Origin: Syntrophorhabdaceae bacterium | GTDB lineage: Bacteria > Desulfobacterota > Syntrophorhabdia > Syntrophorhabdales > Syntrophorhabdaceae | Direction of reading: 5' to 3' | Length of the DNA stretch: 34,166 bases | Assembly (NCBI GenBank): GCA_026415015.1 | Contig: JAOAHW010000209.1 | Span: 1 to 34,166 of the forward strand | In this document: positions 10,370-34,166 of the stretch, piece after piece | Numbering within the stretch: position 1 is the first letter of the stretch | How the letters are laid out: every line of letters starts with the position of its first letter | Made by a program: the position numbers and the translations under genes | Notes under the pieces: generated by a model | Databases searched by the model: none | What the model was told of the DNA's origin: nothing | The model's input: the letters and a program-made list of their open reading frames with translations, nothing else

Positions 10370-10417
10370 GGCAGACTAAAGACTGTAGACTAAAGACTGT
10401 AGACAGATTATAAAGTC
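10370..10417 (-). repeat. Tandem heptamer array B (same motif family as array A) in the hdrC-hdrB gap
   Basis: Plus-strand units: GGCAGAC TAAAGAC TGTAGAC TAAAGAC TGTAGAC, then a degenerate unit and TAAAGTC. The array ends 3 nt from the hdrB ATG (10366). Confidence 0.85.
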
Positions 10418-10469
10418 TTGTTTTTTAGCCTGTTCTTTCAAATTAGACCCTCTATCATATGCCTCATTT

Positions 10470-12929: not shown

Positions 12930-13019
12930 CTTATCACCTGTTATTCAATCAACTTTAAATAATTCACAAGGTTTAATCTTAAATTGAAGTTTTGTAGGGT
13001 CAGGGGTTCCTCCCTTCCT

Positions 13020-13775: not shown

Positions 13776-13777
13776 CC

Positions 13778-15718: not shown

Positions 15719-15720
15719 AA

Positions 15721-19044: not shown

Positions 19045-19538
19045 GCAAGGAGATCATCTCCCTTGACATTTATTATAGAGCGCTCAATATCGATAGATAT
19101 TACGAATGTGTCTATCATGGGTATTAGTATCTCTCTATCCCCTTTTACCACAATGACATCGTTTGCCTTTGTGTGCATTATATAATCAACCTTCCCGAGT
19201 AGTTCGCCAGACTTGTTTACTACATCAAGGCCAATAAGTTGATAGTCATAGTACTCATCTGGTCCAAGGCCCGGAAGGTCTTCTTCCTTTACAAACAACT
19301 CTTTGTTTATAAAGGGAGTGACCTTCTCTAATCCATCGTAACCAAAAAATTTAATATAAAAAATATCTTTCTGGAATCTGATACGCTCTGGTTTTAGCTC
19401 TATCCACTCATCCCTTTGCCTTACGAGGAAATTATTGTATCTATTTAATCCCTCCCTTTCCTCGTTATAATACCAGAACTTTACCTCTCCCTTTAAACCA
19501 TGGGTGGATATTACCCTTCCAATGGAGACGCATTTCAT
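19041..19538 (-). CDS. rimM: 16S rRNA processing protein RimM
   Basis: 165 aa. IGRVISTHGLKGEVK and a C-terminal PRC-barrel-like region. Its position between the KH protein gene and trmD is conserved. Confidence 0.9.
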   Translation of the reverse strand: MKCVSIGRVISTHGLKGEVKFWYYNEEREGLNRYNNFLVRQRDEWIELKPERIRFQKDIFYIKFFGYDGLEKVTPFINKELFVKEEDLPGLGPDEYYDYQLIGLDVVNKSGELLGKVDYIMHTKANDVIVVKGDREILIPMIDTFVISIDIERSIINVKGDDLLA

Positions 19539-19771
19539 TATTCAATTATTTCAAGCACTGCCCTTTTCTTTGCCTTAGTTGAGGCTGCACTGAGGATGGT
19601 CCTCATAGCCCTTGCAGTCCTGCCCTGCTTTCCAATTACCTTGCCAAGGTCATCCTTGGCTACATTTAATTCAATTACTGATGTCTTCTCTCCCTCGATC
19701 TCAGCAACCTTCACCTGATCTGGATTGTCTACCAATGCCTTTGCAATGAACTCGATTAAGTCTCTTAACAT
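19538..19771 (-). CDS. KH-domain RNA-binding protein (UPF0109)
   Basis: 77 aa. [11 protein letters not shown]...[16 protein letters not shown]. Confidence 0.9.
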
Positions 19772-19787
19772 CTCCCACCTCCGGATA

Positions 19788-20045
19788 TTATTGTGTTAAT
19801 TCTTTTAAGACCCCTTCTTTCTTAAAGATGTTTTCTACAGTTTTTGTGGGCTTAGCCCCTTTTTTATACCATGCCTTTATCTTTTCCCTGTCGAGGGTTA
19901 TCTGGGCTGGCTCTCTTAACGGATCATAGGTCCCCACATTCTCTATAAACCTGCCATCTCTCGGATAGATGCTCTCTGCCACAACAATCCTGTAAAAAGG
20001 TTTCTTCTTAGTCCCGTAACGTGATAATCTGAACTTAACAGCCAA
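19788..20045 (-). CDS. rpsP: 30S ribosomal protein S16
   Basis: [23 protein letters not shown]... Confidence 0.95.
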
Positions 20046-20056
20046 TATGCCACCTC

Positions 20057-21388
20057 CTATCGGAATAATAATTGTTTTGGTAGACCTTTCATTCCACCTT
20101 TTGCGAATTTCTTTATCATCTTCTTTGTCTCTGCATATTTTTTAAGCAGGTCATTCACATCCTGCACCTTTGTCCCGCTACCTTTTGATATCCTGAGCCT
20201 CCTGCTCCCGTCTATTATATGGGGATAGAGCCTCTCTTTTTTTGTCATGGAGTTGATAATAGCCTCTATCTTTTTAATATCCTTTTCCGCTGCCTGAAAA
20301 TCTATAGCACCCTTTAATTTGTTTAGACCTGGAAACATACTAATTATGGATTCCAGTGAGCCGAGTTTTTTCATCTGTTTTATCTGGTCCCTGAAATCCT
20401 CAAGGGTAAACTCATCCTTCCTTATCCTCTTTTCAAGCTCCCTTGCCTTTTTCTCATCAAAGACCTCCTGGGCCTTTTCCACAAGGGATACCACATCACC
20501 CATACCGAGGATACGGGATGCCATCCTCTCAGGATGGAAGGGTTCAAGGGCATCGAGTTTTTCGCCAATGCCTATGAGTTTTATGGGTCTTCCTGTTACA
20601 GCCCTTATGGAGAGTGCTGCACCACCTCTGGTATCTCCATCGAGCTTGGTCAGTATTACACCATCTATACCAAGCCTCTCATGGAATGTCTTTGCAATAC
20701 CCACGGCATCCTGACCTGTCATGGAGTCTATGACAAGGAGGGTCTCCTTAGGGTTAAGGACCTTTTTCTGGTTTATGAGCTCCTCAACCATCTCATCATT
20801 TATATGGAGCCTACCTGCTGTATCAACAATGACAATATCAAATCCGTTTTTCATGGCATAGGCCTTTGCCTCTGTGCAGAGGACAACAGGGTTTTTAATG
20901 TCCTTTACAGGGAATGTGCTTATACCTATCTGATTACCTATCTTCGTCAATTGCTCAATAGCAGCAGGCCTATATATATCAGTGGGGACAAGTAGTGGTT
21001 TTCTACCTTTTTTTCTTAAGAATAAGGCAAGCTTCCCTGCTGTGGTAGTCTTACCAGAACCTTGAAGCCCGGCCAAAAGCACAGCAACAGGTGGTGAACC
21101 ACCTACATCAACAGGGACATTCACCCTGCCTAAAAGCTCGCAGAGTTCATCATACACTATCTTTATAAACTGCTGGCCCGGTGTTATGCTTGTTAAGACC
21201 TCTGCCCCGAGAGCCTTTTCTTTTATTTTGTCGAGAAAATCTTTAACAACCTTATAGTTGACGTCTGCCTCAAGGAGGGCAACCCTAACCTCCCTTAGGG
21301 AATCCTTTATATTATCTTCAGAGAGCTTGCCATAGCCCCTTAGTTTTTTAAATGTTGTCTCTAATCTCTCCTGTAACCTTTCGAACAT
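20057..21388 (-). CDS. ffh: Signal recognition particle protein Ffh
   Basis: 443 aa. [15 protein letters not shown] and TKLDGD motifs, plus a Met-rich M domain. Confidence 0.95.
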
Positions 21389-21397
21389 ACAGCCAAT

Positions 21398-21426
21398 AAG
21401 ATAATAGAAAAATCACATATAGTCAA
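21398..21426 (-). promoter_or_regulatory. Possible sigma70-type promoter for ffh (TTGACT-17-TATCTT)
   Basis: The hexamers are read on the minus strand. The -10 lies only ~9 nt from the ATG, which would imply a near-leaderless mRNA. No SD is visible. Confidence 0.3.
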
Positions 21427-21478
21427 TGATAATCAACATTAAGGTATTTATATCTTTTGAAAAATAAAGGTAATATAA

Positions 21479-21913
21479 TTAAAGGCTAAGGAGCTTAAAC
21501 CCTGATACAGGATCAGGTTCTCTTGAAGCGTCTATTCCATCAAGTTCAAGGATAATCCCCTCTAATATGATGAATGTATCTGCTGACCCTCTCAGACAGC
21601 CTACCCTTGTGCTGTCTTTTTTACCGTATGCACCGTGGAGATGTATAATAGGTTCATCTTTATGCCAGAATATAGTACCAATCCCAAGGGTCTCATGGCT
21701 TTCTGTGAGCCTACGCCATACAGGTTCAGGTGGCAGCTCATCCCTTTCAGGACCAACAACAATATCTGCCTTTTTTATACCACCTACAAGATAGAGGATG
21801 CCTGCCTTTATATCTTCTTTTTTTACAATGTCTATAATATGTTCGAGTACTGGATCGCCATCATCAAACTGGAGTACAAATACCCTTCCTATCCTGGCTG
21901 TCTTATATTTCAT
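21479..21913 (-). CDS. PPC/DUF296 domain protein
   Basis: 144 aa. VFVLQFDDGDPVLEHI...HLHGAYG pattern of PPC (PCC) domain proteins. Confidence 0.7.
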   Translation of the reverse strand: MKYKTARIGRVFVLQFDDGDPVLEHIIDIVKKEDIKAGILYLVGGIKKADIVVGPERDELPPEPVWRRLTESHETLGIGTIFWHKDEPIIHLHGAYGKKDSTRVGCLRGSADTFIILEGIILELDGIDASREPDPVSGFKLLSL

Positions 21914-21945
21914 CTATTTCCTTTTATCCTTAAAACTAACTTAAA

Positions 21946-22290
21946 TCACTTTTTGATAGGCTCTAGATCCACCTCTTTGCCAAAGGTATCGGCAAGCTCT
22001 TTTTCGAGCCCTTCAAGGTCATCTTTTTTATCGAACTCTATGACGAGCTCCCTGTCGTCCAAGACCTTGAGCCTACCATACTTTTTCACAATCTCGGTGA
22101 CCTTTATCGGGTCTACAGTAATCCATCCCTTCATCCGCTTTACAAGCTCCTCACCATTAAAGGCCCTCTCTATGGTGAGGTCCACCTTTCTTTTCTTTGC
22201 CTCCCAACCCACAAGGGCTGGCTGAACAACCATAGGTGTAACAGGGTCATGCATGGCCGCACACCTGAACCATAGTTTAGCCCTAATCAT
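21946..22290 (-). CDS. Hypothetical protein (114 aa), no family recognised
   Basis: ORF with a good SD (GAGGTGAAGGA) upstream of ATG 22290. It is co-directional with the PPC gene and divergent from iclR. Confidence 0.5.
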   Translation of the reverse strand: MIRAKLWFRCAAMHDPVTPMVVQPALVGWEAKKRKVDLTIERAFNGEELVKRMKGWITVDPIKVTEIVKKYGRLKVLDDRELVIEFDKKDDLEGLEKELADTFGKEVDLEPIKK

Positions 22291-22307
22291 AATCCTTCAC
22301 CTCATTT

Positions 22308-22336
22308 TTTATAAAGAAGAAATATTTTATCAATAA
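22308..22336 (-). promoter_or_regulatory. Possible promoter for the 114-aa ORF/PPC pair (TTATTG-17-TATAAA)
   Basis: Minus-strand hexamers with a 17-nt spacer. The -35 is weak. Confidence 0.3.
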
Positions 22337-22422
22337 CAGCCAATCCTCACAAGGGAAAAATGAAATATTGTCTCTGTTCACTATCGTAATTTAGTATCTA
22401 TAAATTCAACATCAAATAAACA

Positions 22423-22451
22423 TTGACAAATCATGCTATTCATTATATAAA
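22423..22451 (+). promoter_or_regulatory. Sigma70-type promoter of the IclR gene (TTGACA-17-TATAAA)
   Basis: Consensus -35 at 22423-22428, a 17-nt spacer, and the -10 at 22446-22451, 18 nt before the ATG. Confidence 0.55.
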
Positions 22452-22468
22452 GTTCATCATAGTGAATT

Positions 22469-23233
22469 ATGTATAATGCACCTATTATAAAAAAGGCCTT
22501 TGAGATTATAAAATTGATGGTAGAGGACTATAACCTCCTCGGCGTAACAGATATATCAAAACGCCTTTCCATAAGCAAAAGCACAGTCTTTGGTATCCTC
22601 AAGGCACTTGAGGATGAAAACCTAATAATAAAGGACAACTCCAACAAAAAATACCTTATAGGTCCAGGGCTTTTTGAGTTGTCAAAGAAGGTTTTTAAGG
22701 GTGGGGAACTCTCAAACATTGCAAGGCCATTTCTTGAAAGGCTTGTGGATTATGTAGATGAGACAGTCTTTCTATGCATAAGAGAAGAAGACAATATTGA
22801 AACCCTCGATGTTATTGAGGCGAGAAAAGCTGTGAAGATCTCATCTCCTGTTGGAACAAAGATGCCCATCACAGCATCTGTTCTATGCAAGATATTCCTA
22901 TCACCCATGAAAAATGACGATATAAGGGATTTTCTTTCGAGGAAGGGCCTGCCAAAATATACAGAGAACAGCATTACAGACATAGATAAATTTTTAGAGG
23001 AGATAGAAAAAACAAGAAAATTGGGCTATAGCCTTGACCTTGAGGAGTATCTAAGGGGTGTAAGGGCGCTGGCAACACTTTTATATTATAGCGATGGCAC
23101 ACCTGCAGGGGCAATATGTATAGTTGGATTTTCAAGGTCTATCAAAGATGAAAAACTGCCCATGATGATACAGCACCTGAAAAATACTGCGAAACTCATA
23201 AATCAGAGGCTCTTGCAGCTTAATATCAAATAG
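22469..23233 (+). CDS. IclR family transcriptional regulator
   Basis: 254 aa. N-terminal wHTH (ISKRLSISKSTVFGILKAL) and a C-terminal IclR effector domain pattern. Confidence 0.88.
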   Translation: MYNAPIIKKAFEIIKLMVEDYNLLGVTDISKRLSISKSTVFGILKALEDENLIIKDNSNKKYLIGPGLFELSKKVFKGGELSNIARPFLERLVDYVDETVFLCIREEDNIETLDVIEARKAVKISSPVGTKMPITASVLCKIFLSPMKNDDIRDFLSRKGLPKYTENSITDIDKFLEEIEKTRKLGYSLDLEEYLRGVRALATLLYYSDGTPAGAICIVGFSRSIKDEKLPMMIQHLKNTAKLINQRLLQLNIK

Positions 23234-23276
23234 TGATAGTAAAATATTGCCCAAAGAAATTGAAACAGGGATTAAC

Positions 23277-23292
23277 TACCAAGGCATTGGTA
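23277..23292 (+). terminator. Weak hairpin after the IclR gene (TACCAA-GGCA-TTGGTA)
   Basis: 6-bp perfect stem with a 4-nt loop, followed by ATTGTTG. The T-tract is poor. Confidence 0.25.
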
Positions 23293-23296
23293 ATTG

Positions 23297-23325
23297 TTGA
23301 CACTCCATAAAGAGGGATATTCAAT
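23297..23325 (+). promoter_or_regulatory. Possible promoter of the lipoprotein gene (TTGACA-17-TTCAAT)
   Basis: Consensus -35, a 17-nt spacer and an acceptable -10, 32 nt before ATG 23358. Confidence 0.45.
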
Positions 23326-23357
23326 CAATCCGGTCTTTATTTTGCAGGATATATAAC

Positions 23358-24056
23358 ATGAGGTCTAATACATTATTAAAAATATTTTGCATCTCTGTTT
23401 GTATTGTCCTTGTCTCATGTGCAGGTATTAATGAGAAACACAGGGGATTACTAAAACCGGATGAAAAATATATAGATTGTAGGCCTGTAGTGGATGAAAA
23501 AAACAAGGGGTCACCCATGTTAAGATGCGCTATCAGCTATGACCAGTTAAATTTTTTTACGCCACCTGGAACCAAACTAATAATGATGGCTGATTCAGGT
23601 GAAAGGCTTGAATTATGGTGGACTATTGACTGGCTTGGCATGGGCTATATATTTCCTCGATGGAGATTCGCCCTTATGTACTTTAACCCGAAAGGAAAAG
23701 AAGAGCTCATCTCAGGTGTCAGGATAGGTGAATGTCGCTTTCGTGAGGGCTGTAATCACGGGGCATACTTTGGACCGGACATGAACAAAAACAACACCCC
23801 TGATTATTTTACAGAGATAATCTGGGATAACTGGGATTATGGAGATGATGACGGTGTAAAGGGCTATCTTGACCACTATCAGCATGTCTATAAACCCCTT
23901 ATAAACCAATATACAGTTACAAGGTTCCTATATTTTTATCCTGAAAAATGTACACCTCCTGTAAGCCCAAGGGATGAGGTCTGCAAAATTTCAGAGGAGT
24001 GTAAACCACCTTACAGATTAAAAGAAAAAAAGATTATCAAGTCTATGAGCTTTTAA
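23358..24056 (+). CDS. Cys/Trp/Tyr-rich lipoprotein of unknown function
   Basis: 232 aa. Signal peptide with lipobox (CIVLVS-C-AG). The mature part has several conserved-looking Cys and many aromatic residues. No family recognised. Confidence 0.6.
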   Translation: MRSNTLLKIFCISVCIVLVSCAGINEKHRGLLKPDEKYIDCRPVVDEKNKGSPMLRCAISYDQLNFFTPPGTKLIMMADSGERLELWWTIDWLGMGYIFPRWRFALMYFNPKGKEELISGVRIGECRFREGCNHGAYFGPDMNKNNTPDYFTEIIWDNWDYGDDDGVKGYLDHYQHVYKPLINQYTVTRFLYFYPEKCTPPVSPRDEVCKISEECKPPYRLKEKKIIKSMSF

Positions 24057-24079
24057 ATTTTGACATATAAACCTACAAT

Positions 24080-25534
24080 ATGATAAAAATACATGCCATG
24101 GACATAAATATATTCAACACTTTCACAGGAAAGAAAGAGCCATTTAAACCTATCAAGGATAGCTCTGTAGGGATATATGTATGCGGTGTCACTGTATACG
24201 ACCACTGCCATATTGGTCATGCAAGAAGCGCCATAGTCTTCGATGTAATAATTAGATATCTACTGGAGAGGGGTTATGAGGTAACATCTGTTAAAAACTT
24301 TACAGACATAGATGACAAGATTATAAAGAGATCCATAGAAGAGGGTATATCATGGAGGGAGGTGTCAGAGAAGTATATTGGCTCATTTTATGAAGATATG
24401 GACAGCCTGAATATCTTAAGACCCACATACGAGCCAAGGGCAACAGAACATATAGATGATATGATAAGACTTGTGGAGACACTTCTCAAAAATGGTAATG
24501 CATACATAATGGATGGCGATGTATATTTTAGTGTTGAAAGCTTTAAAGGATATGGTGAGCTGTCAAAGAGGTCCATTGATGAGATGATGGCAGGGGCAAG
24601 GGTAGACATAAATGAAAAAAAGAAAAATCCCCTTGATTTTGCCCTTTGGAAGTCATCAAAAGAAGGTGAACCCTGGTGGGATGCACCATTTGGAAGAGGA
24701 AGACCTGGCTGGCATATAGAATGCTCTGCCATGAGCACAAAATACCTTGGAAACCCCTTTGATATCCACGGTGGAGGTAAGGATCTCATATTCCCCCATC
24801 ATGAAAATGAACGCGCCCAGACAGAAGCAGCGACCCTTAAAAGATTTGTAAACTACTGGATACACAATGGATTTGTGAATATAGAAAAAGAAAAGATGTC
24901 AAAATCATTAGGTAATATCCTGCTTATAAAGGATTTTATTAGAGAATATCACCCTGAGACCCTGAGGCTCTTTTTTCTCTCCAACCATTACAGGAGCCCT
25001 GTAGACTATAATGAAAAATCCATAGATGACAGTAATAGCGCCCTATACAGACTATATCATACTGTAGAGAGGGCAGATGAACTGGAGAGTCAGAAAAATG
25101 CACAACCCATGGTCTTTTCTGAGGCAGATGTTGTTAAAAATAGGTTTTATGAGGCCATGGACGATGATTTCAATACAGCTTTAGCCCTTTCGTGCATATT
25201 TGAGTTGTCCAGGATACTAAACAGGTTAATGGACACCCAGGATGAAAGTGGTCTCCCCTTTGTTTTATACACAAAAAATACCCTCCTCTATCTCTCCCAA
25301 ATCCTCGGCATCCTCAAGGATAAATGGCATATATATGACGAGAATGAAAAAACAAGACACCTTAACCGCATTGGCTTTAGTCTTGCAGAATTAAATAAGG
25401 CCATAGAGGAGAGGGTAGAGGCAAGGAAGAATAGGGATTTTAAAAAGGCTGATAGCATAAGAGAGATGCTTATTGGAAAGGGTATACTATTACAGGATAC
25501 CCCAAAAGGCACTGAATGGAGAATAAAAAAATAA
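24080..25534 (+). CDS. cysS: Cysteine--tRNA ligase
   Basis: HIGH-type motif (CHIGHARS) and KMSKS. The alternative in-frame ATG 24098 (MDINIFNTFTGKKEPF) fits family N-termini better. Confidence 0.95.
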   Translation: MIKIHAMDINIFNTFTGKKEPFKPIKDSSVGIYVCGVTVYDHCHIGHARSAIVFDVIIRYLLERGYEVTSVKNFTDIDDKIIKRSIEEGISWREVSEKYIGSFYEDMDSLNILRPTYEPRATEHIDDMIRLVETLLKNGNAYIMDGDVYFSVESFKGYGELSKRSIDEMMAGARVDINEKKKNPLDFALWKSSKEGEPWWDAPFGRGRPGWHIECSAMSTKYLGNPFDIHGGGKDLIFPHHENERAQTEAATLKRFVNYWIHNGFVNIEKEKMSKSLGNILLIKDFIREYHPETLRLFFLSNHYRSPVDYNEKSIDDSNSALYRLYHTVERADELESQKNAQPMVFSEADVVKNRFYEAMDDDFNTALALSCIFELSRILNRLMDTQDESGLPFVLYTKNTLLYLSQILGILKDKWHIYDENEKTRHLNRIGFSLAELNKAIEERVEARKNRDFKKADSIREMLIGKGILLQDTPKGTEWRIKK

Positions 25535-25554
25535 TCTTATAAAGGAGAACTTTG

Positions 25555-26103
25555 ATGATAGAAGTAAGGTTTCATGGAAGAGGTGGCCAGGGTGCAGTAA
25601 CATCAGCAGAGCTTGTGGCACAGGCAGCAATAAAGGGTAATATGTATGCCCAGGCGTTCCCTAGTTTTGGCCCTGAGAGAAGAGGGGCACCAGTTCAAGC
25701 ATTTTTAAGGGTCTCTGATAGGCCCATCAAGCTCAGGGCAAAGGTATATCACCCCAATAATGTTGTTATTCTCGATGCGACCCTCCTTGGTGTTGTTAAT
25801 CCCTCTGAAGGACTGAAAAAAGACGGGTTCATAATAATAAATACCAGTAAATCTGAAGATGAGCTAAAAAACCTCTTTCCAGGATGCAATATCGCTGTTG
25901 TTGACGCAACACACATAGCCAAAGAGGAACTCGGGGTGCCTATAACAAATACCACCATGCTCGGTGCCCTTGTAAAGGCATCTAATATTATAAATATAGA
26001 ACTCCTTGAAGAACCGGTAAGGGAGAGATTTGGCGTTATAGCCCAGAGAAACATAAATGCATACATGAGGGCTTATAACGAAACCAAAATCATAAAGACT
26101 TAA
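25555..26103 (+). CDS. 2-oxoacid:ferredoxin oxidoreductase gamma subunit (PorG-like), stand-alone
   Basis: MIEVRFHGRGGQGAVTSAELVA...FGPERRGAPV. AGGAG lies 7 nt upstream of ATG 25555. No alpha, beta or delta subunit genes are adjacent. Confidence 0.85.
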   Translation: MIEVRFHGRGGQGAVTSAELVAQAAIKGNMYAQAFPSFGPERRGAPVQAFLRVSDRPIKLRAKVYHPNNVVILDATLLGVVNPSEGLKKDGFIIINTSKSEDELKNLFPGCNIAVVDATHIAKEELGVPITNTTMLGALVKASNIINIELLEEPVRERFGVIAQRNINAYMRAYNETKIIKT

Positions 26104-26135
26104 GCTGCCTGGACAGAGGGCCTATCTTTTTTACC

Positions 26136-27758
26136 ATGAGGGTCTCTGGCAATATAGTTGATATCCTGAATAACGAGGTATATCCTGGCACAATAGAGAT
26201 AAAAGACAGGGCCATAAAAGGCATATTCAGGGAAAGCAGTAGATACAACACATACATCCTCCCTGGTTTTATAGATGCCCACTGCCACATAGAGAGTTCC
26301 ATGCTCTGTCCCTCTGAATTTGCTCGAATTGCCACAGTCCACGGCACAATAGCCACTGTCTCTGACCCCCACGAGATAGCAAATGTCCTGGGCATAGACG
26401 GTGTCTACTTTATGATAGACAATGGAAGACAGGTACCTTTTAAGTTTCATTTCGGTGCACCCTCATGCGTCCCAGCTACAGATTTTGAGACAACTGGTGC
26501 TAAAATTGATATATCAGCGCTGGAGACACTCCTTAAAAATCCCGAGATTAAATACTTAAGCGAGATGATGAACTTCCCTGGGGTTATAAACCATGACCCA
26601 CAGGTGATGGATAAGATCACCCTTGCTAAAAGATTTAAAAAACCAATAGATGGACATGCCCCTGGTCTCAGGGGTGATGCCCTCAAAAGATATATAGAGG
26701 CAGGTATAACAACCGACCATGAGACCTTTGGATATGATGAGGCCGAGGAAAAGATTAATCTTGGCATGAAGGTCATAATAAGAGAGGGATCTGCTGCAAA
26801 AAACTTCGATACACTAAGCACTCTTATATCAAAATATCCCCACAATTGTATGTTTTGCAGCGATGATAAACACCCTGATGACCTCGTAGAGGGACACATA
26901 AACTCCCTTGTAAAGAGGGCGGTGCTTTCTGGGATAGACCTAATGAAGGTGCTGTGGTGTGCGTGTGTAAATCCTGTTTTTCACTATGGACTTGAAGTAG
27001 GTCTTCTAAGAGATAGTGACCCTGCTGATTTTATTGAGGTGGATAGCCTGCAAGACTTTAATATTTTAAGGACATATATAAATGGTAGGGTTGTGGCAGA
27101 AGAAGGCAGCCCTTTGATAGAACATATACCTGCAAGACACATAAACAGATTTGGGACACAAATAAAATCTCCCTTAGATTTCATTTTATACGGCAATCAA
27201 GACAAAAAGACAAATATTATAGAGGCCATAGATGGACAGATCATAACAGGCTGGTCCAAGACAACACTTAGACCAACTGACGGATGCTTTAAGGCAGACA
27301 GAGAAAGGGATATATTAAAGATTGCAGTAATAAACCGTTACAGTAATGAAAGACCTGCAATGGCCTTTATCAAGAATTTCGGCCTGAAAAAAGGTGCTAT
27401 TGCCTCGTCCATCGCCCATGACTCACACAATATAGTAGTAGTGGGTACAGATGATGAAGACATATGCAGTGCTGTAAACCTAATCATTGAAAAAAAAGGC
27501 GGGCTTGCTGTAGCTGTAGGGAATATACAAATGGTTATGCCTTTGCCTGTAGCAGGGCTTATGTCAGATGGAGATGGTTATGAGGTGGCCAGGACATACA
27601 AAAACCTTGACAGGCTTGCAAAACAAATTGGCACAAGCCTCAATTCGCCATTTATGACCCTTTCCTTTATGTCACTACCTGTCATACCTAGACTTAAGAT
27701 TACTGACAGAGGTCTGTTTGATGTGGATAGGTTTAGATTTATTGACCTTTTTGCCTGA
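26136..27758 (+). CDS. ade: Adenine deaminase
   Basis: 540 aa. FIDAHCHIESSML metal-binding motif plus the overall amidohydrolase/AdeC pattern. Confidence 0.88.
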   Translation: MRVSGNIVDILNNEVYPGTIEIKDRAIKGIFRESSRYNTYILPGFIDAHCHIESSMLCPSEFARIATVHGTIATVSDPHEIANVLGIDGVYFMIDNGRQVPFKFHFGAPSCVPATDFETTGAKIDISALETLLKNPEIKYLSEMMNFPGVINHDPQVMDKITLAKRFKKPIDGHAPGLRGDALKRYIEAGITTDHETFGYDEAEEKINLGMKVIIREGSAAKNFDTLSTLISKYPHNCMFCSDDKHPDDLVEGHINSLVKRAVLSGIDLMKVLWCACVNPVFHYGLEVGLLRDSDPADFIEVDSLQDFNILRTYINGRVVAEEGSPLIEHIPARHINRFGTQIKSPLDFILYGNQDKKTNIIEAIDGQIITGWSKTTLRPTDGCFKADRERDILKIAVINRYSNERPAMAFIKNFGLKKGAIASSIAHDSHNIVVVGTDDEDICSAVNLIIEKKGGLAVAVGNIQMVMPLPVAGLMSDGDGYEVARTYKNLDRLAKQIGTSLNSPFMTLSFMSLPVIPRLKITDRGLFDVDRFRFIDLFA

Positions 27759-27765
27759 TCATCAG

Positions 27766-27788
27766 ACCTTTGGAAAGGTTCTTTTATT
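27766..27788 (+). terminator. Weak intrinsic terminator candidate after ade
   Basis: ACCTT-TGGA-AAGGT hairpin followed by TCTTTTATT. The stem is only 5 bp. Confidence 0.3.
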
Positions 27789-27795
27789 CATAAAA

Positions 27796-27824
27796 TTGAC
27801 TTAATAATGAAAATATTCTAATAT
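27796..27824 (+). promoter_or_regulatory. Sigma70-type promoter of the DRTGG/HydS cassette (TTGACT-17-TAATAT)
   Basis: Near-consensus hexamers with a 17-nt spacer. This predicts a 5' leader of about 170 nt before ATG 28001. Confidence 0.55.
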
Positions 27825-28000
27825 ATGAAACAGGTGAAGATTACTGGGGAACAGGATTCATTTTTATTCCATACAAGACCTTTAAAAGTTTTTTTTCATT
27901 TCCTTCAAACTATAGGTTTAAACGGTATAGGAGCAAATATCAGATCAAGGGGTATCTATTCTATGGGGATAAAATTAAATGGGTGTGGATTATAATAGCT

Positions 28001-28357
28001 ATGAATCTAAGAGATGTTAAAGAGATACTTGATGCTGAGGTTTTATGCTGTGAGGACCTCCTTGACCGTGAGGTAACAACATGCTTTGCCTGTGACCTGA
28101 TAAGCGAGATGTTACTCCATGTCCAGTCAAACACACTCCTTGTTACATCCCTTACCAATGCCCATATACTACATGCTGCTCAGGTAATGGATGCCCTTGC
28201 TGTGGTCTTTGTGGCAGGTAAAAGGCCTGATGTAAATGTGATTAAAAAAAGTGAACAGAGTGGTCTACCCCTCATGACAACAAAAAAATTGATCTTTGAG
28301 TGCTGCGGGCTACTTTATATGAACGGAATAAGGGGTAACCTTGAAGAATATGATTAA
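28001..28357 (+). CDS. DRTGG domain protein
   Basis: MNLRDVKEIL...ACDLISEMLL...LLVTSLTN...AVVFVAGKRP. The internal ATG 28001 is preferred over GTG 27983. Confidence 0.75.
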   Translation: MNLRDVKEILDAEVLCCEDLLDREVTTCFACDLISEMLLHVQSNTLLVTSLTNAHILHAAQVMDALAVVFVAGKRPDVNVIKKSEQSGLPLMTTKKLIFECCGLLYMNGIRGNLEEYD

Positions 28358-28825
28358 TTGGTAAAGACTATGTTGAATGACAGTTTTAGATTCACACCAC
28401 ATATAACACTGGAATTCAAGATAGGGGAAAAGGACTTCTTCATTGCTGGTGAATCTGCATCAAGGGTAAAAAAGACACTTCAGCAACTTGGCATGAAACA
28501 GGAGATTATAAAAAGAACAGCCATAATCATCTATGAGGCTGCCATGAATGTGGCAATCCACGCCAATCATGGGACTCTCAAGGTCTATATAGACCCTGAG
28601 GTCATATCCATAATAACAGAGGATAAAGGCCCAGGCATACCAGATATTGAACTGGCCATGAAGGAGGGTTATTCTACAGCCTCCCATGAGGTGAGGGAGA
28701 TGGGTTTTGGTGCTGGTATGGGTCTGCCGAACATAAAACAATGTTCCGATGAGCTCGATATAGACACAAAGGTCGGTGTTGGAACTACATTAAAGGCAAA
28801 GATTTGCCTGAATAATAAAGTATAA
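28358..28825 (+). CDS. HATPase_c protein, SpoIIAB-like Ser/Thr kinase / anti-sigma-factor-type ATPase
   Basis: N box EAAMNVAIHA, G1 box EDKGPGI, G2 box GFGAGMGLPN. The start is either TTG 28358 or ATG 28370. Confidence 0.8.
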   Translation: MVKTMLNDSFRFTPHITLEFKIGEKDFFIAGESASRVKKTLQQLGMKQEIIKRTAIIIYEAAMNVAIHANHGTLKVYIDPEVISIITEDKGPGIPDIELAMKEGYSTASHEVREMGFGAGMGLPNIKQCSDELDIDTKVGVGTTLKAKICLNNKV

Positions 28826-28844
28826 AAGAATAGGTAGAATAGAT

Positions 28845-30194
28845 ATGACTGAATATTTTCATTCTGTAACACTTGACTTTGAAAAATGCAAGGGATGCAC
28901 AAACTGTATAAAAAAGTGTCCTATGGAGGCCATACGTGTCCATGACGGTAAGGCTACTATTATGCAGGAGAGGTGTATAGACTGCGGTGAGTGCATAAGG
29001 TGCTGTCCCAATCATGCTAAGATTGCAGTAACAGATACACTTGACATATTATCTGAATACAAATACAGGATAGCACTGCCTGCACCATCCTTTTTCGGTC
29101 AGTTTAAGGAATTAGAGAATGCAGATTGCGTGCTCCATGGACTATTGAGCATAGGTTTTGATGAAGTCTTTGAGGTTGCCCTTGCTGCCGAGATTGTAGG
29201 ATATTTGGTGCATCAATATATAAAGGACAGTAAGATAAAAAGACCTATCTTCTCATCCGCCTGTCCTGCAGTGCTTAGGCTTGTGCAGATAAAATTTCCT
29301 GACCTCCTTGAGCAGATTGCCCCTATCCTTACACCTATGGAGGTGGCAGCAAGGCTGGCTAAGGAAGAGGCAGTGAAAAAGACAGGCATAGATTATGAAG
29401 ACATAGGCGCCTTTTTCATATCACCATGCCCTGCCAAGGTGACAGAGATGAGAAATCCCATGACCACAAAACACTCTGCAGTAAACGGTGTTATAGGTGT
29501 GCAACTCATCTACAAGGATATAATAAAATATATTATCAAGGAAAAGACACAGAAAGTGTCTTCAACACTTCAGAAGGCTACAAAGCTCGGGATGGCATGG
29601 GGGTATGTAACTGGAGAATCCAAAAACGTGGATGCCAGCACAACGCTTGCAGTAAGTGGTATCCACAATGTTATAAGCCTCCTTGAAGAGATAGAGAGAG
29701 GTGAGTTAAAAAATGTTGATTTTATAGAGCTTCAGGCATGTATAGGTGGCTGCGTTGGTGGCCCGTTAAATATACACAATCTCTTTGTTGGGAGGGTAAG
29801 GCTAAGGGAGCTTATAAAAAAGTGTGGATCAAGACCGTCTTATTATACAGATGAGGAGCTCCATAGGTTTTACACCCAAGGTCACTATGTATCTACAGAA
29901 CCAGTACAGCCCAAGACAATTATGCATCTTGATGAGGATATGTCAATAGCAATAATGAAGATGGAGCGCCTTGACAAGATTACAAATGAACTCCCAGGAC
30001 TTGATTGCGGTGCCTGTGGCTCGCCAAGCTGTAGGGCCCTGGCAGAGGATATAATAAGGGGCATAGCCTTTGAAACAGACTGTGTCATAAAACTGAGGGA
30101 AAAGGTTAAAACCCTGGCAGAGGAGATTCTTGATCTGGCAAGGATAGTCCCCCCTGTTATGGCTGATTCTTCTAAAAAGACAGGGGACAAATAA
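28845..30194 (+). CDS. [FeFe]-hydrogenase-like protein, putative sensory HydS type (group D-like)
   Basis: 449 aa. 2x CxxCxxCxxxCP (aa 15-54). H-cluster motif variants FSSACP (aa 136-141), ISPCPAK (aa 192-198) and ELQACIGGCVGG (aa 295-306). C-terminal C388x2Cx4Cx16C413. Confidence 0.8.
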   Translation: MTEYFHSVTLDFEKCKGCTNCIKKCPMEAIRVHDGKATIMQERCIDCGECIRCCPNHAKIAVTDTLDILSEYKYRIALPAPSFFGQFKELENADCVLHGLLSIGFDEVFEVALAAEIVGYLVHQYIKDSKIKRPIFSSACPAVLRLVQIKFPDLLEQIAPILTPMEVAARLAKEEAVKKTGIDYEDIGAFFISPCPAKVTEMRNPMTTKHSAVNGVIGVQLIYKDIIKYIIKEKTQKVSSTLQKATKLGMAWGYVTGESKNVDASTTLAVSGIHNVISLLEEIERGELKNVDFIELQACIGGCVGGPLNIHNLFVGRVRLRELIKKCGSRPSYYTDEELHRFYTQGHYVSTEPVQPKTIMHLDEDMSIAIMKMERLDKITNELPGLDCGACGSPSCRALAEDIIRGIAFETDCVIKLREKVKTLAEEILDLARIVPPVMADSSKKTGDK

Positions 30195-30210
30195 AAATTG
30201 AGGTGATGAT

Positions 30211-30552
30211 ATGACTCTCGGTGAATTGGCAGATAGCCTTGGATTTGAGATTTTAACAGGGGATATAAATCTTAAAAGGGAGATAAAGTCAGGGTATGTA
30301 TCTGATCTTCTCTCTGATGTGATTGCAAACATAGAGATGGATTCTGTGTGGATAACAATCCAGAGACATATTAATATACTCGGAGTAGCAAAACTTAAGG
30401 ATGTGGCTGCCATTATAATACCCAGGAATCTCCAGCTCGATAAAGATGTAATCGAAAAGGCAAAAGAGGAGAATATAGCAATCTTAAGAGACAGCCGCTC
30501 TGCCTTTGAGATTGCAGGTCTTATATATAATGCCTTGAAAAAAGGTATGTAA
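30211..30552 (+). CDS. DRTGG domain protein (second copy)
   Basis: 113 aa. VSDLLSDVIAN...AAIIIPRN...ENIAIL pattern. Confidence 0.75.
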   Translation: MTLGELADSLGFEILTGDINLKREIKSGYVSDLLSDVIANIEMDSVWITIQRHINILGVAKLKDVAAIIIPRNLQLDKDVIEKAKEENIAILRDSRSAFEIAGLIYNALKKGM

Positions 30553-30553
30553 G

Positions 30554-31270
30554 GTGTCATGGTTTTCCTGTGACCTCCATATACACTCTACACTCTCACC
30601 ATGTGCAAGCCTTGATATGTCACCAAAGAATATTGTTTTGAAAGCTAAAGAAGTGGGTCTCCATATCATAGCTATAACAGACCACAATATGACTGAAAAC
30701 TCCATCTTTGCCCATGAAATAGGAAAAAAAATAGGCCTTACTGTTCTATTTGGTATGGAGCTCCAGACCCAGGAGGAGATCCATCTTTTGGCTATATTCG
30801 ATGATTATCATACTGCCATGGAACTTCAAAAAAAGGTCTACTCTCTCCTGCCCCATATTAAAAATGATGTAAACTATTTTGGTGACCAGGTTGTGGTGGA
30901 TGAAAATGACGAGATAATACGCTTTGAAGACAGAATGCTTCTCAATTCCTCACAGATAACCATAGAGGACGCAGTAGAATGGATCAAGGCCCATGGAGGG
31001 ATTGCAATACCATCCCATATCGATAGCACCACATTCAGTATAATAAGCCAGCTTGGTTTTATACCAGATAATATCCCTTTTGATGCACTTGAGATAAAAA
31101 AAAGTGAAAATATACCAGATGTCTTACCTTTTATTATTAGAAAAGACATCCCCTTTGTAACATTTTCAGATGCCCATTATCTAAATGACATAGGAAAGAA
31201 AAGGACTACTCTTCATATGGATGAGCCAACATGCAAAGACATAAAAGCAGCTCTAAAATTATTGAGGTGA
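30554..31270 (+). CDS. PHP-domain phosphoesterase
   Basis: 238 aa. CDLHIHSTLSPCA, ITDHN and PSHID His/Asp motifs of the PHP family. The GTG start abuts the upstream stop codon. Confidence 0.8.
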   Translation: MSWFSCDLHIHSTLSPCASLDMSPKNIVLKAKEVGLHIIAITDHNMTENSIFAHEIGKKIGLTVLFGMELQTQEEIHLLAIFDDYHTAMELQKKVYSLLPHIKNDVNYFGDQVVVDENDEIIRFEDRMLLNSSQITIEDAVEWIKAHGGIAIPSHIDSTTFSIISQLGFIPDNIPFDALEIKKSENIPDVLPFIIRKDIPFVTFSDAHYLNDIGKKRTTLHMDEPTCKDIKAALKLLR

Positions 31271-33346
31271 GATTACTATCCTTGCATCTACTGCATATAG
31301 ATCATCGCCTTCACCTTTTATTGGATTTATGTCTATCTCTGATATATCTGGAAAATCTTCGACTAACCTCCCTATCCTCACCAGATAATCGGTAAGGATT
31401 TCTATGGACATACCTTTTTGACCCCTTATCCCTTTAATAAGGGAAAATCCTCTTATATTCGTGATCATATCGTATGCCTCTTCCTTTGTTAATGGAGCCA
31501 TATTAAAGACCATATCCTTTAATGCTTCTGTATATATCCCACCAAGACCGAACATAATAAGGTGTCCTGAGGTATCATCACGTTTACAGCCTATTATTAT
31601 CTCATTTCCTACAACAAGCTGCTGAGCCAGAACTGCAATAGCTCCTTCAATCTTTATCAATTCCTCCCAGATGCTCAAGGCCTTTTCCTGTGAGTCTATC
31701 CCTACCCTCACCCCATTTGTTTCTGTTTTATGGATTGGTCCAATTGCCTTCATAACCATAGGAAAACCAATTTTTTCACAAGCTGAGTAAACATCTTTTT
31801 TAGAAGTCATGTAAACCTGTAATGGCATTTTAAATCGTAAATAGCCTAATATCTTTGAGACATCAGAAAAAGATAATATACCTCTTTTGTCTATAATATC
31901 TTTTACAGCATTTTTATCATAATGGAAAACCTCATTTGATTTTTTATAGATCTTTGGTTTTCTCAAAACCTTTCCCATTGCCTTTGCAAGATTCACCTCA
32001 TCGAAAAAATAAAAATTGCCTTGTGAGGCAAACTCCATCAAAGGTCTATGACATGTTGTGACTGAGCTAAAAACAGGTATTATAGGGATTGTGCTGTATT
32101 TTATCGCTATTGCTATCTCATCGTATATTTTTTTATTATCAAAAAAGCCTGGATTTGCAATCATAACAACTATTACATCTATGTTGTCTTTTTCTTCTTC
32201 ATTTAAAATCTTCAATATCTCTTTTATCTGTGTTGCTGTCCTTGAAGGAAAACAGTCAATAGGATTAAGCACTGAACATTCAGGGGGAAGTATTTTTCCT
32301 ATAATATTTTGCGTATCTTCTCTCAAGACAGGGACTTTAAATCCCTGCCTCTCTAACTCATCAGTTATTATAACCCCTGGTCCACCTGCGTCTGTTATAA
32401 CGCATACATGGTTCCCTTTAAACTTACCTCTTATCGCCTTTAAAACACAGGCAATATCAATCATCTCTATCTTGCTTTCTGCCCTTATTATCCCTGCCTT
32501 TTTAAATAAGGTGTCTACTACTGTATCATTATTTGCCATAGCCCCTGTATGACTTATGGCTGCCCTGACACCTGCATCTGTGGCCCCTGATTTTATTGCA
32601 ATGATTGAACAACCTTTTTCAACGAGTCTCTTTGTATGGCTGAGAAACTCTCGGGGTTTCTTAAGGGATTCTATATACATCATCAAAATAGGTGCACCAC
32701 CTATTTCATAGTGTTCCCCATAGAGTCCAATAAGATCCTCAATACCAATCTGAACAGAATTGCCTACATTTACAACATTAGAGAATGATAACCCTCTGCT
32801 TACCGCCTGTTCCATAACAAGGTCTACAAATGCACCCGAACCACTTATCAGGTCTATTGCTCCAGGTTTTGTTTCAGGCATAATACCTGCAAACTTACCG
32901 CTATAGTAAGGGGTCATAAAACCAGAGCAATTAGGACCTATCATTATTATTCCATTTTCATTTGCAATTTTTAAAAGATGCGCCTCTTTTTTCTTTCCCT
33001 CTTTATCTTTTTCCCCAAAGCCTGCAGATATAATTATCACTGCCTTGACCCCTATCTCTGCCATCTCCTCAAAAACTGCTATAACTGCCTTTGCTGGAAC
33101 CACAATAATGGCAAGTTCTGGTATCTCTGGGAGTTCTTTGAGTGAAGGATAAGAGTCAATGCCCAATACCTTATTGCCTTTAGGGTTTACAACCATAAGT
33201 CTACCTTCATATCTATGGTCAATTATATTTTTTAAGATTTTTCCACCTGGTTTGTTTGTGTCCTCGCTGGCACCCACTATAACAATAGAATCAGGCATAA
33301 ACAATGCCTTATACTGTAAAAATGAACCTTTGACCTCTGTATCCAT
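31259..33346 (-). CDS. Acetate--CoA ligase (ADP-forming), fused alpha/beta (ACD)
   Basis: 695 aa. CoA-binding IVIVGASEDTNKPGG, a succinyl-CoA-synthetase-like ligase domain and a C-terminal ATP-grasp. It converges on the PHP gene and overlaps it by 12 nt. Confidence 0.85.
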   Translation of the reverse strand: MDTEVKGSFLQYKALFMPDSIVIVGASEDTNKPGGKILKNIIDHRYEGRLMVVNPKGNKVLGIDSYPSLKELPEIPELAIIVVPAKAVIAVFEEMAEIGVKAVIIISAGFGEKDKEGKKKEAHLLKIANENGIIMIGPNCSGFMTPYYSGKFAGIMPETKPGAIDLISGSGAFVDLVMEQAVSRGLSFSNVVNVGNSVQIGIEDLIGLYGEHYEIGGAPILMMYIESLKKPREFLSHTKRLVEKGCSIIAIKSGATDAGVRAAISHTGAMANNDTVVDTLFKKAGIIRAESKIEMIDIACVLKAIRGKFKGNHVCVITDAGGPGVIITDELERQGFKVPVLREDTQNIIGKILPPECSVLNPIDCFPSRTATQIKEILKILNEEEKDNIDVIVVMIANPGFFDNKKIYDEIAIAIKYSTIPIIPVFSSVTTCHRPLMEFASQGNFYFFDEVNLAKAMGKVLRKPKIYKKSNEVFHYDKNAVKDIIDKRGILSFSDVSKILGYLRFKMPLQVYMTSKKDVYSACEKIGFPMVMKAIGPIHKTETNGVRVGIDSQEKALSIWEELIKIEGAIAVLAQQLVVGNEIIIGCKRDDTSGHLIMFGLGGIYTEALKDMVFNMAPLTKEEAYDMITNIRGFSLIKGIRGQKGMSIEILTDYLVRIGRLVEDFPDISEIDINPIKGEGDDLYAVDARIVISPQ

Positions 33347-33353
33347 ATCTTTA

Positions 33354-34147
33354 TCACCTCTCTTTTTTTCTCATCATCAGGGATGTCATAGCCCCGATTA
33401 CTGCTACACATGTAGATAATGCAAAGGGATATTTGAATGATCCGGTTATATCCTTTAGCCAGCCCGCTATAAAAGGACCTAATGCCTGACCAATTCCAAA
33501 AAAAAGTGTTATAAAACCAAGGGCAGCAGGTGCAAGCCTCGCCCCTATTGCATCTCCTGCTGCGGCAGCCATAATTACCGGTATAGAAAAGGCAGTGAGA
33601 CCAAATAGAATAGCTGATATATAGAACAGGGGGATCGATTTTGTAATAATAAGAAAAAGACATGAGATGGCAAGGACAAGATATGCACCCATGGAGGCAT
33701 ATCTCCTGCCAACTATATCAGATAAACCACCCCATATAACACCACAGAAAATGGCACAGAATCCCAGAATCGCAAATAAATGACCTGCTGAGGAATCAGA
33801 TAGACCGATCTCTTTGGTGAGAAATGCTATGATAAATGTAAGATAGATGATATATGAGAATCCATACATAAAATATACTAATCCGAGCTTCCATATCTCC
33901 TTTTCATTTAAAAGTATCTTCCATGTGGAAAATAATGATATCTTTTCATTGCCTTCAGCGGGCTGACCATTACCTCCATATATGGTCAAGCCTTTCTCCC
34001 CTGGTGTATCCCTTAAGAGGGCATAGCATACAAAAGAAAATACAAAGACTATTATCCCAAGAAGATACCAGGTATACCTCCAACCATCTGTGCCATACAT
34101 GACTATCAGGCGTGGTATAACAAGACCTGTGATAGAAAGGCCTGTTC
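33354..34147 (-). CDS. MFS transporter (N-terminus cut by contig end)
   Basis: The frame stays open upstream of the track ATG (34100) as far as the adapter (...GTGLSITGLVIPRLIV-MYGTDGWRY...). About six hydrophobic helices are visible. Its stop lies 8 nt before the ACD start. Confidence 0.7.
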
Positions 34148-34166
34148 CTGTCTCTTATACACATCT
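34148..34166. other. Nextera/Tn5 mosaic-end adapter remnant (CTGTCTCTTATACACATCT), technical artefact
   Basis: Exact reverse complement of the ME sequence at positions 1-19. It generates the spurious MCIRDR... ORF. Confidence 0.95.

Follow-up and report, generated by a model that had tools for sequence, protein, structure and literature searches.

How [FeFe]-type H2 sensors relay their signal is an open question, and it is raised by a locus of a Syntrophorhabdaceae bacterium in which the gene for a sensor-like [FeFe] hydrogenase stands among four genes for small proteins. The locus lies on contig JAOAHW010000209.1 of assembly GCA_026415015.1, and we analyzed positions 1 to 34,166 of this contig (the window). 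A first reading of the sequence (the original prediction) had described the locus as a putative H2-sensing module that lacks its usual hydrogenase operon. The analysis below identifies the locus as the accessory cassette, five genes long, of an [FeFe] hydrogenase of group D (M2e) from a Syntrophorhabdaceae-like syntroph, and the usual neighbor of such cassettes is an operon for an NADH-dependent HydABC hydrogenase. Comparisons within the gene family point to the four small proteins as signaling partners of the hydrogenase.

A five-gene cassette around an [FeFe] hydrogenase of group D

The five tightly packed plus-strand open reading frames (ORFs) of the original prediction were found exactly at the positions given there (Table 1), with gaps of 0 to 12, 19, 16, and 1 nt between successive genes, and all five domain calls were upheld by searches with Pfam and NCBIfam profiles. 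The observation of a five-gene cassette is confirmed, and we regard the identity of the five proteins, and with it that of the cassette, as very probable. In a terminator scan no terminator-like site was detected between the five genes, and site counts did not exceed those of shuffled sequence. At its 3′-end the cassette meets the convergent gene of an ADP-forming acyl-CoA synthetase (ACD), which is real and whose stop overlaps the 3′-end of the PHP gene by 12 nt. It had also been stated that the cassette contains no DNA-binding output domain and that no catalytic hydrogenase follows it; neither was found anywhere in the 34-kb window.

Table 1. Positions of the cassette genes and adjoining features in the window
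Feature	Position	Strand	Remarks
Promoter-like site TTGACT-N17-TAATAT	27796..27824	+	9/12 consensus positions
5′ leader, ~170 nt	27825..28000	+	Poorly conserved
DRTGG-1	28001..28357	+	118 aa from conserved ATG; ORF opens at GTG 27983
SpoIIAB-like GHKL ATPase/putative Ser/Thr kinase	28358/28370-28825	+	151-155 aa; without HisKA/DHp
Group D (M2e) [FeFe] hydrogenase, TamHydS type	28845..30194	+	449 aa
DRTGG-2	30211..30552	+	113 aa
PHP-family metal-dependent phosphoesterase	30554..31270	+	238 aa
ADP-forming acyl-CoA synthetase (ACD)	31259..33346	-	Convergent boundary, outside module

The hydrogenase, here called HydS, matched the Pfam family Fe_hyd_lg_C at 2e-36 and also 4Fe-4S dicluster domains, with Fer4 family matches at residues 8-58 and the FeS domain PF04060 at residues 383-414 (4.5e-12). 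Two N-terminal [4Fe-4S] motifs are followed by the H-domain, whose H-cluster ligands are, in the numbering of the protein, C140 (L1, SSAC140P), C195 (L2, S193-P-C195), and C299xxxC303 (L3, C-I-G-G-C). The C-terminal motif Cx2Cx4Cx16C is formed by C388, C391, C396, and C413. All of these motifs and cluster cysteines were invariant in an alignment of 14 sequences of relatives. Hydrogenases of group D (M2e) lack Cys299 and carry Ser or Thr in place of Met353 in the numbering of CpI (PMC8163306). When checked on the alignment, the window HydS was found to have Ala at the position of the proton-relay residue C299 and Ser at the position of M353 (CpI numbering).

TamHydS of Thermoanaerobacter mathranii, the published representative of this type, served as reference; its sequence was translated from a coding sequence in the supplement of PMC13104023 that had been damaged by optical character recognition. 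Three tblastn high-scoring segment pairs covering residues 4-441 of the window HydS showed 46-57% identity, and the L1, L2, L3, and C-terminal motifs were the same. TamHydS has the same two [4Fe-4S] motifs, H-domain, and Cx2Cx4Cx16C motif, likewise without a PAS domain, and it shares L1 (SSACPAV), L2 (FISPC.AKVT), L3, and the acidic C-terminal residues. The two proteins differ in origin, TamHydS being from the phylum Bacillota and the window HydS Desulfobacterota-like, at position M497 (Leu in TamHydS, Gln in the window HydS), and in that hydABC is not adjacent in the visible sequence of the window. Because its motifs match the published hallmarks of M2e proteins and TamHydS, the window hydrogenase is assigned to group D (M2e), TamHydS type, and so to the sensor-like kind; a role in H2 sensing is suggested by analogy. 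TamHydS itself catalyzes slow, reversible H2/H+ interconversion with high H2 affinity and low rates (PMC8163306). It changes structure on exposure to H2, and its sensing role is a proposal only (PMC8163306, PMC13104023).

Group C (M2f) HydS proteins carry a C-terminal PAS domain after the four-Cys cluster. In the window HydS a profile search gave no PAS match, and the last Cys is followed by 36 residues. The label "HydS-like" of the original prediction was apt as far as the sensor-like kind is concerned, but the protein is not a PAS-bearing group C HydS such as those of Thermotoga or Ruminococcus, and the mention of Thermotoga in that prediction may conflate groups C and D. From PMC5037454 and PMC11406978, group D appears to correspond to "group C1, histidine kinase-linked (putative)" of HydDB; in the window a HATPase gene does adjoin hydS. 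The family is large, with >7,900 close matches and 551 clusters at 50% identity with E ≤ 1e-30. The nearest relatives of the window HydS are proteins from metagenome-assembled genomes of Syntrophorhabdaceae and Syntrophus.

The original prediction had placed the cassette behind a near-consensus promoter. Such a site is present, but its match to the consensus is incomplete (Table 1) and site numbers are at chance level, the scan having returned 10 promoter-like sites vs 11.9 expected from shuffled sequence. The promoter call rests instead on conservation across species: the block AAAATTGACT.AAT....AAAATATTCTAATAT is invariant in four of them (the window, L001, L007, and L087), whereas in the same alignment the leader outside the block diverges, with indels of ~100 nt. 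The promoter shown by this conservation is of the sigma-70 type, and the cassette is predicted to be transcribed from it, with a start near position 27831. The alignment of leaders also sets the start of the first gene at ATG 28001, and a 56-aa ORF within the leader (27825-27995) is probably not coding. An imperfect inverted repeat (27787-27799/27817-27829, TTCATAAAATTGA/TCTAATATATGAA, 77% complementary) flanks the -35 and -10 hexamers, and over the -10 hexamer lies a short AT-rich palindrome, ATATTCTAATAT. Each is a candidate operator; no known regulator motif was found to match them at 27787-27829. A search for Rex operators that allowed up to 3 mismatches found no Rex box, and scanning the entire window against Rfam in search of a leader RNA gave zero matches.

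Partner proteins and genomic linkage in the HydS family

Both proteins flanking the ATPase-hydrogenase pair exceeded the Pfam cut-off for PF07085 of 25.2 bits (DRTGG-1, 34.2 bits, 2.3e-8; DRTGG-2, 27.2 bits, 3.6e-6). The name-giving DRTGG motif is altered and reads L-T-g-L-x-N in DRTGG-1. Residue conservation, which we computed over 60-74 sequences per partner protein (74 for the ATPase and 71 for the PHP protein), revealed D38..S41, T55, and N59 (numbered from the GTG; S41 becomes S35 when counted from the conserved ATG) as conserved in DRTGG-1 and D32-L-L-S35, T49, and N55 as invariant in DRTGG-2, that is, a D-L-x-S motif plus a Thr and an Asn that are invariant in both paralogues. DRTGG-2 is weakly similar to the N-terminal domain of HPr kinase. 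PDB sequence searches with the two proteins gave no matches at E ≤ 1, and a literature search for DRTGG combined with hydrogenase returned nothing relevant.

The second gene of the cassette encodes an ATPase with matches to HATPase_c (5e-9) and HATPase_c_2 (1e-7) of Pfam. Its best NCBIfam match was the anti-sigma F factor SpoIIAB (3e-13), with 49.8 bits vs a cut-off of 135 for TIGR01925, and its only sequence relatives in the PDB were SpoIIAB structures (about 4e-6). The N-box (E60, N64, H68), G1 (D89xG91xG93), and G2 (G116-F-G-A-G-M-G) were invariant in the 74 sequences, the boxes as a whole being 97-100% conserved. A two-component sensor histidine kinase was ruled out, as profiles detected no HisKA/DHp domain and only ~36 residues precede the ATPase domain. 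The start of the ATPase gene directly follows the stop of the DRTGG-1 gene, an arrangement shared with spoIIAA-spoIIAB.

The protein encoded by the last gene matched PHP (1.2e-9) and PHP_C (9e-6) of Pfam. Its metal ligands D7xH9xH11, D43-H44, E69, H77, H155, and D206xH208 are 97-100% conserved in the 71 sequences, and Cys17 is invariant; it departs from its relatives only in a species-variable C-terminal tail. The invariant motifs point to catalytic competence of both the ATPase and the PHP protein.

To follow the cassette through the family, one genome per species was surveyed, which returned 596 relatives, and the best 80 loci were analyzed. These came from Syntrophorhabdales, many Bacillota (including Moorella mulderi and Thermoanaerobacterium), Armatimonadota, and a spirochaete, and their neighboring genes were labeled by single-seed searches and motif checks. 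All five parts were present in 44 to 50, depending on the detection method, of the 67 loci with room for the cassette, and the gene order recurred in Desulfobacterota, Bacillota, Armatimonadota, and Spirochaetia. In 44 of 44 loci, profiles distinguished the upstream DRTGG copy from the downstream one, which shows DRTGG-1 and DRTGG-2 to be distinct orthologous paralogues. DRTGG-2 and the PHP gene were both present in 57 loci and both absent in 7, while PHP occurred alone in 3.

Natural fusions of HydS were found in 10 of 150 representatives of clusters formed at 50% identity. Seven, each from an independent cluster, are HydS-DRTGG fusions whose C-terminal domain scored best with the DRTGG-2 profile; two are DRTGG-HydS fusions (P0175 and P0180) whose N-terminal domain scored best with the DRTGG-1 profile; and one is a HATPase-HydS fusion (P0133). 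The DRTGG-2 domain fused to the C-terminus of HydS therefore holds the position that the PAS domain occupies in group C sensors. These fusions, the co-occurrence of DRTGG-2 and PHP, and the invariant catalytic motifs of the ATPase and the PHP protein are the new observations of this work, and because of them the four small proteins are proposed as signaling partners of HydS.

The linkage to catalytic hydrogenases was counted in the 43 loci whose flanks extend for 7 kb or more on each side. A NuoF-containing hydCBA operon lay directly downstream of the cassette in 26 of them and divergently upstream in 6. Moorella mulderi and Thermoanaerobacterium, together with the published locus of Thermoanaerobacter mathranii, bear out the statement of the original prediction that such cassettes precede operons for NADH-dependent or bifurcating HydABC. 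The HydA proteins encoded next to cassettes passed the NCBIfam cut-off for "NADH-dependent [FeFe] hydrogenase, group A6," and the usual neighbor is thereby shown to be the operon of an NADH-dependent HydABC enzyme. In agreement with this, the TamHydS gene lies upstream of that for the bifurcating HydABC (PMC8163306). A similar layout can be read from the annotation in the genome paper, the sole source for this case, of Halanaerobium hydrogeniformans (Halsa_1862-1871; PMC4237134): genes for an anti-sigma-type Ser/Thr kinase, for Fe-S/hydrogenase-like proteins, and for a PHP-domain protein come first, and those for NuoE, a histidine-kinase-like protein, ferredoxin, NuoF, and HydA come next. The cassette plus hydCBA of the 26 loci has the corresponding layout, and in Halanaerobium the catalytic operon follows directly, unlike in the visible 2.9 kb here.

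How often hydABC is absent from the neighborhood had been posed as a question with the original prediction. No hydCBA was present within ~9 kb in 11 of the 43 loci, and 6 of these 11 have the full cassette, including L007 of the Syntrophorhabdales, whose HydS is 85% identical to that of the window. Of 53 "C1" genes in Hydrogenedentota, 21 stand next to group A3 genes and 32 are unlinked (PMC11406978). A recurring alternative target downstream of unlinked cassettes was considered and rejected: the genes that follow (amylase-like, GGDEF-EAL, SpoU, LacI, GH94, PPIase, and CN-hydrolase) are unrelated housekeeping genes. Short forms consisting of HATPase and HydS, without DRTGG-2 and PHP, adjoin the gene of an MCP-fused, group C2-like hydrogenase in one locus (L042:9496-13314) and CheW in another (L047:9065-11314), and a further short form (L079:5946-11308) adjoins a Cache-GAF-PAS histidine kinase and an OmpR-type regulator. 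These neighbors suggest that the same sensor core can be wired to different outputs.

A side observation concerns the catalytic enzymes. In 45 of 45 full-length HydA proteins encoded next to cassettes (L008-L085, e.g., L057:15778-17526), L1 reads TSCSPxW, which puts Ser where CpI has the cluster ligand Cys300. The structurally characterized HydA1 of PDB entry 7q4v likewise has TSCSPGW. Six Syntrophorhabdales loci have a second hydrogenase, with TSCCPAW, whose gene lies on the opposite strand several kb upstream of the cassette. TSCSP seems to be characteristic of enzymes of the HydABC type and not a defect; a literature search for the term returned nothing relevant.

Proposed signal relay and its principal alternative

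The explanation that we favor, and that we hold as a whole to be reasonably probable, starts with the binding of H2 to HydS, which would cause a conformational change; the C-terminal Fe-S domain would hand this change on to the DRTGG partners. On a DRTGG protein the SpoIIAB-like ATPase would act either as a partner-switching protein or as a serine kinase, with the Ser that is invariant in the D-L-x-S motif as candidate phospho-acceptor, and the PHP enzyme would reverse this modification. The resulting state would tune the expression or activity of HydABC and perhaps also of formate dehydrogenase. Insertions in the lineage of the window may have moved hydCBA away from the cassette, in which case the module would act in trans. 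The phospho-relay within this scheme is put forward tentatively, as a possible rather than a probable mechanism.

Several points weigh against this explanation. To our knowledge, no phosphotransfer, binding, or response to H2 has been shown for DRTGG, HATPase, or PHP partners in any organism, and we know of no output domain. That the signaling mechanism is not established, as noted in the original prediction, still holds according to PMC13104023 (2026), where the C-terminal cluster of TamHydS was found to stay oxidized under H2, so that the route of transduction is not clear. The ATPase falls below the cut-offs of both families, that of SpoIIAB given above and that of RsbW (21 bits vs 145), and profile searches detected no STAS protein or sigma factor in the cassette. 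The nearest relatives of the PHP protein are of the 3e0f/2yb1 type, the N-terminal domain of TrlF, and the PHP domain of PolC, which are nucleotide or nucleic-acid phosphoesterases and not CpsB-type protein phosphatases. Some of the fusions could be read-throughs of gene calling. Hydrogenase genes hydABC are not nearby in 26% of the long-flank loci and short HATPase-HydS forms adjoin CheW, MCP, or two-component genes, from which it follows that HydABC is not the sole possible target.

Part of this evidence would also suit signaling without a protein phospho-relay, an alternative that we consider unlikely. Here the GHKL protein would be an ATP-gated binding protein or anti-factor, the PHP enzyme would hydrolyze a nucleotide or a small phospho-metabolite, and the DRTGG proteins would be ligand-binding or dimerizing adaptors, as discussed for CBS-pyrophosphatases. 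The relatives of the PHP protein and the lack of a STAS substrate in the cassette favor this alternative, as does the literature, which discusses the DRTGG domain only for nucleotide-regulated CBS-pyrophosphatases and Pta. On the other hand, like active kinases of the SpoIIAB type, the ATPase has an invariant catalytic Glu and Asn in its N-box and two invariant glycine boxes, an invariant Ser/Thr pattern is common to both DRTGG paralogues, and the first two genes abut in the manner of spoIIAA-spoIIAB.

The favored scheme draws on several known systems. With the modules SpoIIAA-SpoIIAB-SpoIIE and RsbV-RsbW-RsbU the cassette shares a small GHKL Ser-kinase-like gene directly after that of a small alpha/beta protein, a dedicated phosphoesterase gene nearby, and, in an ATPase of ~150 aa without a DHp domain, the GHKL ATP-binding motifs of SpoIIAB and RsbW. 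It differs from them in having no STAS protein, sigma factor, or PP2C phosphatase and in an ATPase that scores under the family cut-offs; the resemblance is one of analogy, not of membership. The group C (M2f) proteins TmHydS of Thermotoga maritima, HydS of Ruminococcus albus, and HfsB of Thermoanaerobacterium share with the window HydS a sensor-like H-domain without the proton-relay Cys, the C-terminal four-Cys cluster, and a genetic linkage to catalytic hydrogenases and to genes for Ser/Thr kinases or phosphatases. They have a fused PAS domain and PP2C-type phosphatases, in contrast to a DRTGG-2 protein at the PAS position and a PHP-type phosphoesterase here. The [NiFe] system HoxBC-HoxJ-HoxA of Ralstonia eutropha follows the same logic, in that a low-activity hydrogenase serves as an H2 sensor controlling the genes of a catalytic hydrogenase, but it employs an unrelated metalloenzyme, a PAS-histidine kinase, and a DNA-binding response regulator, and neither of the latter two is present in the cassette.

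A more far-reaching claim, which we regard as doubtful, is that the two DRTGG paralogues act as the signal transducers so far missing for hydrogenases of group D, within a partner-switching circuit. DRTGG-2 would then be the detached equivalent of the group C PAS domain, and DRTGG-1, the kinase, and the PHP enzyme would form a so far unrecognized circuit without STAS protein, sigma factor, or PP2C phosphatase that controls HydABC post-translationally or through an unlinked regulator. If this were true, lineages with cassette and hydCBA apart, such as that of the window, would show the circuit to function in trans.

The contig end and the probable location of hydCBA

Downstream of the cassette only 2.9 kb of sequence are visible, containing the ACD gene and then an MFS gene (33354-34147) that is cut at about residue 150 of ~406. 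The contig ends at 34148-34166 in CTGTCTCTTATACACATCT, the Nextera transposase adapter, which also yields a spurious minus-strand ORF ("MCIRDR..."). The truncated MFS gene and the adapter identify the right end of the window as an assembly break.

Beyond the cassette the closest relatives provide the context. Contigs of the nearest one (P0002, HydS 95% identical) are syntenic with positions 19161-31264 of the window at 82-90% nucleotide identity, the cassette of the nearest species being 87% identical to that of the window. In that species (L001) the PHP gene is followed by a PCC-domain gene, by genes for FocA and a formate dehydrogenase on the opposite strand, and by a gene for a CBS protein. 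Then come, on the strand of the cassette, a second HATPase gene, one for a 119-aa protein, hydC (NuoE-like), hydB (NuoF-like), and hydA, which encodes a 584-aa group A enzyme; hydB starts 6.7 kb after PHP. The catalytic subunit of the formate dehydrogenase (L001:13849-16548, minus strand) is split by an in-frame stop into ORFs of 352 and 530 aa, in other assemblies it is called as one protein of 899 aa, and the enzyme is probably selenocysteine-containing.

The description as an orphan without its usual hydrogenase operon is therefore not established, given that the contig breaks 2.9 kb on and a relative carries hydCBA 6.7 kb downstream. Nor did the argument hold that the convergent ACD gene makes a downstream hydABC operon impossible, since in L001 opposite-strand genes for formate dehydrogenase and FocA precede hydCBA. 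Even if real, orphan status would not be rare, because 11 of the 43 long-flank loci and 32 of the 53 genes in Hydrogenedentota are unlinked. Most likely, the hydCBA operon of this genome lies beyond the contig end or elsewhere.

Synteny with the nearest relative stops 6 nt before the PHP stop codon of the window, and the contig of a 93%-identical relative (P0003) ends inside the PHP gene. At this breakpoint each of three close species has its own context: the window has ACD-MFS, L001 has PCC-FocA-formate dehydrogenase-hydCBA, and L007 has an amylase-like gene together with an efflux pump. Relatives of the ACD (78% and 68% identical) are encoded in MarR-MFS-ACD units away from HydS. Next to one such unit, in L088, stands a gene orthologous (72% identity) to the post-PHP PCC gene of L001; the upstream PCC paralogue is only 27% identical and so is not the counterpart of this L088 neighbor. 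These data fit the insertion of an ACD-MFS-MarR unit between PHP and PCC in the lineage of the window, with the hydrogenase operon further on. The predicted order after the truncated MFS gene is MarR, PCC, and further genes, which would place hydCBA roughly 10-15 kb downstream of PHP. The GC content at third codon positions (GC3) is 0.31 for the ACD gene and 0.31-0.34 for ACD/MFS vs 0.36-0.50 for most other genes of the window.

Two alternatives bear on the downstream context. That the module is truly an orphan, unlinked from any hydrogenase and controlling something else in response to H2, we consider distinctly unlikely. Candidate targets would be formate dehydrogenase, acetate/acyl-CoA metabolism through the convergent ACD, or the MetFV-Hdr-MvhD complex, whose genes are on the same contig. 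There is no hydrogenase within 28 kb upstream or 2.9 kb downstream, L007 has no hydABC within 9 kb on either side, and the six unlinked full cassettes and the short forms beside chemotaxis and two-component genes are in line with this alternative. It is opposed by the adapter at the assembly break, by hydCBA 6.7 kb downstream in the nearest species, by the lack of any recurring partner after unlinked cassettes, which are followed by housekeeping genes only, and by the ACD itself, whose relatives stand in MarR-MFS-ACD units far from HydS and whose junction with PHP was found in no other assembly.

Less probable still is that the PHP/ACD junction is an assembly chimera and the downstream context foreign to this genome. 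The abrupt end of synteny, the low GC3 of ACD and MFS, and the adapter at the contig end would agree with a chimera, as would the lower identity of the best ACD homologue (78% vs 95% for HydS) and the absence of the junction from two metagenome scans, one exact and one degenerate. However, the ACD and PHP genes both have intact ends that encode normal C-termini, the junction shows no repeat, ACD-MFS correlates with neighboring segments at 0.90-0.93 in tetranucleotide profile, the ACD homologues are Syntrophorhabdaceae-like, and the MarR-MFS-ACD unit beside the PCC orthologue in L088 fits a real insertion or deletion at this site.

It is very improbable that the hydrogenase is no sensor at all and instead a slow catalytic enzyme or an extra redox subunit of HydABC with assembly or maintenance proteins as neighbors: although all H-cluster ligands and the N-terminal relay clusters are intact, TamHydS does catalyze H2/H+ interconversion (PMC8163306), and some authors (PMC11406978) regard group C3 proteins as a "T" subunit of Bfu complexes, the protein has lost the proton-relay Cys and has an altered active-site pocket, the rates of TamHydS are low and its H2 affinity high, and the cassette is consistently linked to, and sometimes fused with, signaling-type domains and also occurs without any HydABC nearby.

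Elsewhere in the window, the minus-strand cluster at 2590-10991 encodes MetF, MetV (DUF5981), MvhD, a 1468-aa HdrA/NfnB-like flavo-Fe-S fusion, an ArsR-like regulator, HdrB, and HdrC. It represents a Moorella-type methylene-tetrahydrofolate reductase/heterodisulfide-reductase-like complex, which fits a hydrogen- or formate-cycling anaerobe. A low-GC island on the minus strand (11022-13808; GC 0.29-0.36, GC3 0.26-0.27) encodes a DNA methylase of 635 aa and an R.HinP1I-like restriction endonuclease; together they probably form a restriction-modification system gained by horizontal transfer. The adjacent LarC-like (nickel insertion) and LarB-like (AIR carboxylase family) genes at 14564-16464 (minus strand) encode components of nickel-pincer cofactor synthesis and are unrelated to the cassette.

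The 2026 study of TamHydS states that its interaction partners are still to be identified (PMC13104023), and neither this study nor PMC8163306 mentions DRTGG or PHP partners. The window adds no new kind of system to one that is already known, widespread, and mechanistically unsolved. What the comparison supplies are candidate partners of group D hydrogenases, namely, two DRTGG proteins, a SpoIIAB-like kinase, and a PHP phosphoesterase, proposed on account of synteny across phyla, natural fusions with HydS, and invariant catalytic residues, and its value rests with the gene family as a whole rather than with this locus. As syntrophs like Syntrophorhabdus depend on the H2 partial pressure, an H2 sensor would be central to their physiology.

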